From a virus (Duplodnaviria; Heunggongvirae; Uroviricota; Caudoviricetes), in the IMG/VR virus record IMGVR_UViG_2700989510_000024: a stretch of 6,362 nt of DNA. The stretch is one strand, 5' to 3'. The notes under the pieces were generated by a model. It saw only the letters and a list, made by a program, of their open reading frames with translations. It was not told where the DNA came from and ran no database searches. The position numbers and the translations under genes are program-made. The number at the start of each line of letters is the position of its first letter. Position 1 is the first letter of the stretch. Below are positions 5,597-6,033 of the stretch, piece after piece.

Positions 5597-5764
5597 ATGA
5601 AAAATCACGGAGTAAAGCCAGTTTTACTTTCCCGGGGGCAGATCGAAGCCCTGCAACGTATCCAGGCCGAAAAGCGTCAGAAATCTGTGCTTGGTGTGGC
5701 ACCGTCGATTCATGTTATTGCCCGGCAACTGATGGATAAGGCACTTAAAGAGGTGAGGCTGTGA
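5597..5764 (+). CDS. hypothetical small protein (55 aa), possible regulator
   Basis: I place the start at the internal ATG 5597, which has AAGGGA at 5585-5590 six nt upstream, rather than the track's ATG at 5441, which lies in AT-rich repeat-bearing DNA. Its TGA stop (5762-5764) overlaps the GTG start of the next ORF. No family recognised. Confidence 0.45.
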   Translation: MKNHGVKPVLLSRGQIEALQRIQAEKRQKSVLGVAPSIHVIARQLMDKALKEVRL

Positions 5765-6033
5765 AATTAAATATCAGAGTGGATAAACGCCAGCTATGGC
5801 AGAAAAAAGAGAACAGCGAGGCATTCAGGGCTTTGCTGGTGGAAAATCTTCGGCACCGGTTCAGTGGAGAGTTGCCTGATGCACTGGGGAAGAAACTGGA
5901 ATCCCTGACGGTGGAAATTGGCGATTATGGCTTTGTTGATGTTGAAAGCACGACTGCCAACACAGAAATCGTAAAGCAGGTCGTCAATGATGTAATGAAA
6001 ACCACGCTTAGCCAGCCATCCTGGCGCAACTGA
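5761..6033 (+). CDS. hypothetical acidic protein (90 aa)
   Basis: GTG start at 5761 with GAGGTGAGG at 5749-5757 and a GTGA overlap with the upstream stop. The ORF ends at TGA 6031-6033 and is followed by a hairpin. No family recognised. Confidence 0.55.
   Translation: MKLNIRVDKRQLWQKKENSEAFRALLVENLRHRFSGELPDALGKKLESLTVEIGDYGFVDVESTTANTEIVKQVVNDVMKTTLSQPSWRN

Follow-up and report, generated by a model that had tools for sequence, protein, structure and literature searches.

A conserved gene pair of Gram-negative phage satellites with a predicted ribbon-helix-helix regulator and a probable DinI/TumB-type modulator

What role do two small, tightly coupled genes play in a phage satellite when neither has a named family? 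The question is raised by a 6,362-nt stretch of DNA, below called the window, from the IMG/VR virus record IMGVR_UViG_2700989510_000024 (Caudoviricetes), in which a gene for a 55-aa protein (orf55) is directly followed by a gene for a 90-aa protein (orf90). A first-pass annotation, made from the letters alone, compared the two with toxin-antitoxin, anti-defence and repressor-antirepressor pairs. Bases 128-6236 of the window are a segment of a phage satellite of the Gram-negative phage-inducible chromosomal island (PICI) type. Within it, orf55 and orf90 are read here, with evenly balanced confidence, as the promoter-proximal part of a conserved late operon for packaging or interference, encoding a ribbon-helix-helix (RHH) regulator and a modulator of the DinI/TumB type. 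The parts of the pair come from known fold families, and the whole is a new version of a known type of small regulatory cassette.

Both frames behave as genes. The two coding regions and the GTGA common to them at 5761-5764, as described in the first-pass annotation, can be read directly from the sequence, and the RefSeq annotation of a near-identical locus gives both open reading frames (ORFs) identical boundaries. The 4-nt overlap is GTGA in divergent Escherichia coli copies and ATGA in Serratia and Leclercia. Among E. coli copies with a DNA divergence of up to 13%, the ratio of nonsynonymous to synonymous substitution rates (dN/dS) is 0.03-0.07 for orf90 and, in the more divergent comparisons, 0.13-0.2 for orf55; both genes are under purifying selection. 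It is barely conceivable that one or both ORFs are chance frames and that the conserved feature is really a non-coding element. Such an explanation could draw on the RefSeq label 'hypothetical protein', given to both ORFs, and on the lack of a family match in four libraries, but it is effectively refuted by the selection analysis, in which dN/dS values of 0.03-0.2 are accompanied by many synonymous changes. Homologues in other genera, with identity down to 48-66%, keep the length, and those of Serratia and Leclercia also keep the overlap. In addition, both ORFs have good ribosome-binding sites, the structural models are confident enough for coherent fold matches, and a search of the window against Rfam found no known structured RNA. 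orf55 and orf90 are a genuine and conserved couple of satellite genes that had not been described before: the literature searched holds no description of these genes in PICIs, and the paper on the Tai system deals with other genes. The pair is present in 131 of 5426 complete E. coli genomes, or about 2.4%, including strains of the O104:H4 outbreak lineage, and the match covers at least 80% of the 631-nt query in 130 of them.

The unit to which the pair belongs is defined by its neighbourhood. The gene that follows orf90 encodes, where intact, a 175-aa protein whose N-terminal helix-turn-helix (HTH) best matches terminase small subunits (phrog_57, E 4e-6), and in the proposed operon it would be the third gene, coding for a terminase-small-subunit-like (TerS-like) protein. 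It is intact in the near-identical island of E. coli USMARC-51688 (locus L001) as well as in L013, L015, L016, L002 and L017; among the E. coli and Serratia copies compared with the window, L014 alone has it truncated. E. coli and Serratia share the order of the RHH gene, the DinI-like gene and the 175-aa HTH gene, with variable flanking genes. The 5′ neighbours are a lipoprotein and a membrane protein, or nothing; the 3′ neighbours of the HTH gene are SIR2, AAA with DUF4435, an RNA-binding protein, or AAA with an S8 protease. Homology of the window to cargo-free E. coli copies starts at 5513-5518 (query_from 14-19, the query starting at 5500), and homology to other PICI copies stops at 6236. 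The fixed gene order amid varying neighbours marks the promoter region, the RHH gene, the DinI-like gene and the TerS-like HTH gene as the conserved unit. The pair is therefore part of the satellite's conserved core and not cargo. The position beside cargo, to which the first-pass annotation had given weight, is true of the window but incidental, since in three other E. coli copies (L013-L015) the pair stands directly after the gene of a PerC-family regulator. For the anti-defence option, the evidence points in neither direction. Across the E. coli copies, the orf90 product is 97-98% identical, the RHH protein 84-95% and the HTH protein 79-84%. Conservation so much stronger than that of the neighbours suggests that the 90-aa protein has a conserved target, possibly one of the host.

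The 55-aa protein is strongly basic, and its isoelectric point (pI) of 11.0 favours nucleic-acid binding as a predicted property. Its AlphaFold model, with a predicted local distance difference test (pLDDT) score of 78.9, shows an extended N-terminus followed by two helices. The strand covers about residues 6-12 and the helices residues 13-29 and 38-54, which agrees with the beta-alpha-alpha topology of RHH domains (about 45 residues, an N-terminal strand and then two helices). A fold search with this model returned RHH folds, RHH antitoxins among them. The domain uses all 55 residues, and the whole protein has the size of a bare RHH domain. Judged from the model, the protein most likely has a ribbon-helix-helix-like fold in its minimal form. 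Its family comprises 27 clusters among 5.8 billion sequences, from Escherichia, Citrobacter, Pantoea, Mixta, Winslowiella, Rosenbergiella, Rouxiella and Erwinia.

A candidate binding site for such a protein lies in front of its own gene, where the 16-bp motif TTTCA-N6-GCAAY is repeated. The motif occurs three times in L001 against 0.16 occurrences expected, and none of 200 shuffled sequences reached three. Almost every related locus has it 5′ of the RHH gene, with two copies in E. coli and Serratia and at least one in the Pantoea-type and Leclercia loci. The repeats are spaced by 30 bp in every E. coli copy and in the Pantoea-type loci, and in the Serratia copies they form an inverted pair. 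The Serratia and Leclercia loci have no PerC gene, which leaves the RHH protein as the sole product that always accompanies the motif, and on this ground autoregulation is proposed. In the suggested mechanism, the orf55 protein would bind the repeats 5′ of its own gene as a dimer and would thereby set the level or the timing of the operon, as Arc does on the arc-ant operon of phage P22. A perfect 18-bp palindrome that overlaps the second repeat was also considered as operator and was rejected: it is present in the window, L001 and L016 but not in L013-L015, which makes it a lineage-specific and not a conserved element. RefSeq places a 66-aa ORF on the - strand across this promoter region (window 5381-5581; L001 9082-9282); it overlaps the conserved repeats, lies in a region that the cargo-free copies do not share, and is probably no gene.

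At the other end of the pair, the hairpin at which the first-pass annotation let both genes terminate is a real stem-loop (dG -12.5 kcal/mol, z -1.4). It is followed by UCCUCC, however, and not by a U-tract, and the terminator scan of the window did not call it. Serratia has a hairpin of other sequence in the corresponding place (dG -23.7, z -3.0), so that its position seems to be more important than its sequence.

The comparison with other genera describes how far the two genes depend on each other. In the Pantoea-type, Rosenbergiella and Leclercia satellites, the RHH gene comes first, behind a strong terminator and the same repeats. It is directly followed by a tape measure gene in Rosenbergiella, by a gene for a 108-aa protein and a tape measure gene in the Pantoea-type loci, and by a DinI-like gene, a Phage_TAC_4 chaperone gene and a tape measure gene in Leclercia; in L009, no second gene follows. 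As the second gene changes among genera, the RHH and DinI-like genes are not an obligate pair, and the RHH gene is a general operon leader. A relationship between the 108-aa protein of the Pantoea-type loci and the 90-aa protein was considered and rejected (hhalign probability 0.5%). The genes behind the RHH gene in these related satellites form an observation of their own. In these regions (L018:3831-7766, L007:7001-10919 and L004:8001-11020), the chaperone matches Phage_TAC_4 with E 2.8e-9, and the tape measure proteins are full-length (948-1140 aa; TMP_2 with E 1.6e-68, Tape_meas_lam_C), with no other tail genes nearby; the sister locus L009 is without them. The literature searched holds no description of tape measures encoded by satellites.

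The same comparison bears on a type II toxin-antitoxin system, in which the 90-aa protein would be a toxin neutralised by the RHH protein, which would also act as autorepressor. In dinJ-yafQ, an RHH antitoxin and a small toxin are encoded behind a LexA box. Here too, a small RHH gene comes first and a gene of roughly 90 codons second with a 4-nt overlap, LexA boxes are found in relatives, and the pair has stayed intact in decayed satellite remnants (the window and L014). Strict co-occurrence is missing, however: in L004-L010 (Pantoea-type and Rosenbergiella), the RHH gene is followed by the tape measure gene, by the gene of the 108-aa protein or by nothing. Moreover, the 55-aa protein has no C-terminal toxin-binding extension (the matched antitoxin chains have 80-87 residues), the 90-aa protein has no known toxin fold and no toxin match in Pfam or PADLOC at E<=1, and the pair occupies a fixed core position instead of the variable cargo slots. 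A toxin-antitoxin system, the first of the options named in the first-pass annotation, is very unlikely for a bare RHH domain that also occurs without the 90-aa gene and whose partner shows no toxin fold.

The operon of the sister lineages appears to be connected with the SOS response. A LexA position weight matrix, checked on known sites (the annotated 186 p95 site, 27.2; upstream of PSP3 tumA, 28.6; just upstream of dinD, 27.0), detected the box CTGTATGAACATACAG directly 5′ of the ribosome-binding site of the RHH gene in two Serratia species (score 16.8) and a near-canonical box in the same place in Rosenbergiella (17.7-19.9). Since these boxes lie between the repeats and the ribosome-binding site, the operon is predicted to be SOS-inducible in Serratia and Rosenbergiella. 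No site in the window reached a score of 11, and the surroundings of the pair in L001 and L013-L016 were likewise free of sites; LexA control of the window copy was rejected for this reason. The operon is thus probably SOS-wired in the sister lineages and not in E. coli.

Two further sites were noticed in the related loci. Just 5′ of the ribosome-binding site of the RHH gene, the Pantoea-type 15-mer CTGTATATTTATCAG (approximately L007:6975-6989) is the exact reverse complement of the Leclercia 15-mer CTGATAAATATACAG (approximately L018:3813-3827). Both have the form CTG-N9-CAG, one base under a LexA box, and may be what is left of an SOS box or else an operator to which a different repressor binds. 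In a Serratia satellite, a strong LexA-box-like site, CACTGTAAAAAAATACAGTA (L002:9106-9125, score 22.8), lies upstream of cargo consisting of an AAA ATPase and an S8 peptidase, which suggests SOS control of a probable defence system.

The second protein of the pair had been described as acidic, and it is not: 13 D+E residues stand against 14 K+R, and the pI is 8.0. Its AlphaFold model (pLDDT 75) has a beta-alpha-beta-beta-alpha fold, and the fold search pointed to the small DinI fold of this topology. The Pfam DinI model (PF06183) did not match the protein at E<=1. A profile of the 90-aa family, compared by hhalign with a combined profile of DinI, TumB and Tum(72-146), gave a probability of 79% (P 1.6e-5; 75 columns, 1-88 to 1-75), and the reversed control gave 0.8%. 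Against the single components the values were lower: 11%, a weak match, for close DinI orthologues alone, 26% for TumB alone and 35% for 186 Tum alone, the last aligned end to end with the DinI-like half. The support therefore appeared only once TumB and the C-terminal half of Tum had joined the DinI orthologues. The 90-aa protein, TumB of phage PSP3 and the C-terminal half of Tum of phage 186 share an N-terminal K-x-N-I-x-x-D-K and a C-terminal SWR. Because the combined profile aligns end to end, the 90-aa protein is most likely a remote member of the DinI/TumB family. It carries a conserved 12-residue insertion (36-47) after helix 1, G-E-L-P-D-A-L-G-K-K-L-E. As a predicted small protein-binding modulator, it would act on a conserved partner, RecA filaments or a repressor, during induction of the helper phage.

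The 90-aa family is very small, with 9 clusters among the 5.8 billion sequences. A HMMER search of 1.84 billion representatives gave 8 matches with E<=0.001, of which 5 were the family's own small proteins, and no bridge to a named family; a fold search of BFVD with the model returned uncharacterised proteins only, all above E 0.001. The second-tier fold matches included the tautomerase/MIF superfamily. Members of that superfamily use a catalytic N-terminal proline, Pro1. The 90-aa protein starts with M-K-L, no member of its family has a proline near the N-terminus, and this candidate was rejected.

Kinship with TumB raises the possibility of a Tum-like cassette that induces the helper: an antirepressor among the two proteins would inactivate the repressor of a resident helper prophage, the DinI-like partner would tune RecA, and the satellite would trigger or accelerate the induction of its helper. 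The layout parallels tumA-tumB of PSP3, the fused tum of 186 and the dinI-antirepressor operons of the Gifsy prophages, all of them LexA-controlled (PMC3121763). The end-to-end alignment with the DinI-like half of 186 Tum and the canonical or near-canonical LexA boxes of the Serratia and Rosenbergiella relatives point in the same direction. The 55-aa family, however, shows no relationship to TumA (hhalign probability 0.1%), and its protein resembles a DNA binder and no known antirepressor. A LexA box is found in no E. coli copy, and the induction of Gifsy prophages was not significantly altered when their dinI homologue was deleted (PMC3121763). In addition, tblastn searches with both proteins against 50,697 phage genomes (INPHARED) gave no meaningful match, so that no phage of this collection has a detectable relative of either protein. 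A helper-inducing cassette of this kind is unlikely. It is rather unlikely that the pair is a diverged, satellite-borne Tum/DinI SOS cassette, which would sense or manipulate the SOS/RecA state of the host or the repressor of the helper. If this were true, the satellite would time its own late operon together with helper induction, with the RHH protein providing internal feedback. In the sister lineages, the same leader would then control the satellite's tape measure and chaperone genes, which would add a new regulatory layer for Gram-negative PICIs. Among the three options of the first-pass annotation, the regulatory one, a repressor-antirepressor-like pair, comes closest to the evidence, namely an RHH protein, a DinI/TumB relative and an echo of PSP3 tumA-tumB.

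The third gene of the module suggests another explanation, in which both small proteins are packaging accessory factors that help the TerS-like protein to recognise the packaging site or to capture the helper terminase, in the manner of Rpp-like auxiliary subunits. In E. coli and Serratia, the pair is always the immediate 5′ neighbour of the HTH/TerS-like gene, a small basic protein that binds DNA could serve to mark the cos or pac region, and Gram-negative PICIs are known to redirect packaging by Rpp, a TerS-like protein with a winged HTH (PMC6739421). Against this, a search at E<=10 detected no sequence similarity of the 175-aa protein to RppC or any other chain of the Protein Data Bank (PDB). 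For interference by EcCICFT073, RppA was sufficient by itself, and lambda was blocked by none of the other genes behind the replication origin (PMC6739421). The Pantoea-type operons led by the RHH gene end in a different family, DUF5681, and the conserved repeats lie at the promoter and not at a recognisable packaging site. A packaging role of the pair is rather improbable. EcCICFT073 has no detectable copy of the pair, as judged from the 131 matching E. coli genomes, in which CFT073 was not looked up by name. An identity of the 175-aa protein with Rpp was rejected, as phmmer with the intact protein against all PDB chains gave nothing relevant. The intact protein, encoded at L001:9834-10361, is very acidic in its C-terminal half, for example in DDGGIWMDDGDAEFYFEQYD. 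The divergence of the whole protein between E. coli copies, much faster than that of the DinI-like protein, would be expected if it co-evolves with the variable terminases of helper phages.

Several observations weigh against the preferred reading of a late operon headed by an RHH regulator and a DinI/TumB-type modulator. Neither protein matches anything in Pfam, PHROGs, NCBIfam or PADLOC at E<=1; for the 55-aa protein, this includes the RHH families of Pfam, NCBIfam and PHROGs. The family profiles retrieved only spurious hits among PDB sequences, such as plant leucine-rich repeat kinases that share F-x-G-E-x-P-x-x-L-G, or RabJ, and no RHH protein was found with the 55-aa profile. The earlier statement that neither protein belongs to a recognised family thus holds at the level of sequence, but not at the level of folds and profiles, where the sensitive profile and structure searches proposed at that time give an RHH fold for the first protein and a remote DinI/TumB relationship for the second. 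Both assignments are built on AlphaFold2 models of medium confidence (pLDDT 75-79), shallow alignments and one profile-profile comparison. The putative DNA-reading strand of the RHH protein, VKPVLLS, is nearly invariant, and its sole polar candidate is K7, which is unusual for a reader of an RHH operator. The repeats are asymmetric, and it is by inference that they are paired with the RHH protein. A promoter shared by both genes, as claimed in the first-pass annotation, is plausible, yet the scan of the + strand called no sigma-70 consensus promoter. The E. coli copies have no LexA box, and any link to SOS would reach them through ancestry only. The lack of relationship between the 55-aa protein and TumA also counts here. 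Finally, the last 25 residues of the 90-aa protein hold 2 D/E and 3 K/R, compared with 8 D/E in DinI and 7 in TumB. In DinI, according to Voloshin et al. (2001) as cited in PMC3121763, a negatively charged C-terminal helix mimics DNA on RecA. The 90-aa protein is without such an acidic DNA-mimicking helix, so its contact surface, and possibly its target, would differ from that of DinI.

The coordinates of the pair, its control elements and the surrounding genes are collected in the table.

Table. Features of the 6,362-nt window, beginning with the gene pair and its control region
Feature	Position	Strand	Remark
Promoter-region repeat A, TTTCATTCATTGCAAT, TTTCA-N6-GCAAY	5518-5533	+	homology to cargo-free copies begins here
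Promoter-region repeat B, TTTCAATTTGTGCAAT	5548-5563	+	30 bp 3′ of repeat A, start to start
Perfect 18-bp palindrome, CAATAATTG/CAATTATTG	5560-5577	unstranded	overlaps repeat B; 0.01 expected by chance
Shine-Dalgarno-like AGAAGGG of orf55	5584-5590	+	6 nt 5′ of ATG; read from sequence
orf55, 55 aa	ATG 5597 to TGA 5762-5764	+	most likely RHH-like; proposed first gene of satellite late operon
Shine-Dalgarno GAGGTGAGG of orf90	5750-5758	+	within 3′ end of orf55; conserved in E. coli variants
orf90, 90 aa	GTG 5761 to TGA 6031-6033	+	most likely a remote DinI/TumB member
Studied pair orf55 and orf90	5597-6033	+	followed by first 35 codons of HTH gene
Stem-loop	6040-6060	+	8-bp stem, 5-nt loop; between orf90 and next gene
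Third module gene, first 34-35 codons	6133-6236	+	HTH_17 and phrog_57 matches; cut by ISEc8-derived sequence
DUF4222 gene, one of several small genes	365-655		
D5_N/DUF5906 primase-helicase	652-2457		
AT-rich non-coding region with repeated GGTAGACAG units	about 2460-2820		many units in both orientations; 3′ of primase gene
ProQ/FinO protein	2827-3369		
PerC-family regulator	3366-3653		intact in window
380-aa lipoprotein (N-terminal half coiled-coil) and 107-aa membrane protein	3788-5318		between PerC and pair

The near-identical intact island of USMARC-51688 has the same gene order, and the element includes an HTH regulator and an AntA/AntB protein. The window itself has foreign ends: bases 1-127 have no match to the island and carry the C-terminal end of an IS3-like transposase frame, and bases 6237-6362 lie inside an IS66-like ISEc8 transposase. 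This copy is therefore a remnant; its third module gene is cut after about 35 codons, which rules out a functional satellite. The USMARC-51688 island, intact in other respects, has a frameshift in its PerC gene (L001:7066-7354). The AT-rich region with GGTAGACAG units presumably serves the satellite as an iteron-type origin of replication.

Two slots of the island receive accessory genes. The 380-aa lipoprotein and the 107-aa membrane protein found no assignment in PADLOC or Pfam, and their genes are absent from L013-L015. They are candidates for a defence or surface function, and their position fits the accessory hotspot in the middle of the island, which has been described for PICIs (PMC11364771). 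Among E. coli copies, the slot behind the HTH gene (L013:5685-8403; L016:5777-7733; L015:5978-7966) is a 3′ defence hotspot with cargo that differs from copy to copy: a SIR2-family gene with a partner, an AAA ATPase with DUF4435, which is a PARIS-like pair, or a gene for a protein with an RNA-binding domain.

Gram-negative PICIs are investigated for their sensing of helper phages and their hijacking of packaging. Their maps commonly show whatever lies from the replication module to the TerS-like gene as grey 'hypothetical' boxes. Two such genes now form a conserved operon leader, which consists of a predicted RHH-fold protein and a probable DinI/TumB relative and which stands behind LexA boxes in sister lineages. 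In this way, satellites may link late functions with the SOS response or with the modulation of RecA or of a repressor. At the same time, a toxin-antitoxin annotation that looks plausible but is poorly supported is removed.

The nearest known counterpart is the LexA-controlled gene pair tumA-tumB of PSP3, which phage 186 has as the fusion tum; next come the dinI-antirepressor operons of the Gifsy prophages. In both tumA-tumB and the satellite pair, a small gene is directly coupled to a following DinI-family gene, a hairpin or partial terminator comes after the pair with further genes 3′ of it, and the LexA box of the satellite relatives stands in the corresponding place. PSP3 tumA (60 aa) and tumB (77 aa) are separated by a 3-nt gap, while the satellite genes (55 and 90 aa) overlap by 4 nt. 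For the upstream protein of the satellite, an RHH fold is predicted. Its DinI-like protein, basic or neutral instead of acidic, carries the 12-residue insertion, and the E. coli copies are without a LexA box. The element is a satellite and not a P2-like phage, and a TerS-like gene follows. DinI itself (PF06183; PDB 1GHH, 7YWA) is more distant: the 90-aa protein is 17% identical to it, has a pI of 8.0 compared with 4.7, and leaves the Pfam model silent. In the Gifsy dinI-antirepressor-irsA operons, in which a terminator precedes the LexA box, a DinI homologue is co-transcribed with a small regulatory protein (PMC3121763). The same layout of terminator, promoter and box is seen in the Pantoea-type, Rosenbergiella and Leclercia relatives. 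In the Gifsy operons, however, dinI comes first, its partner is an antirepressor whose fold is unknown, and the carriers are prophages.

The likeness to other systems is more limited. The Rpp module of EcCICFT073-type PICIs occupies the same place of the island, 3′ of the origin, and shares a TerS-like N-terminal HTH, but no small RHH or DinI-like genes were described there (PMC6739421). The toxin-antitoxin operons dinJ-yafQ and parDE have the RHH-first layout of two overlapping genes, and RHH antitoxins were among the fold matches; the satellite pair differs by the absence of a toxin-binding tail, of a toxin fold and of strict co-occurrence. In the arc-ant operon of the immI region of phage P22, Arc sets the level of the operon through a 21-bp symmetric operator. 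The satellite pair has no sequence similarity to it, its candidate operator consists of the asymmetric TTTCA-N6-GCAAY repeats, and autoregulation is proposed for it. A functional analogue of the proposed late operon is provided by the staphylococcal pathogenicity islands (SaPIs), in which the packaging operon I is regulated by LexA.

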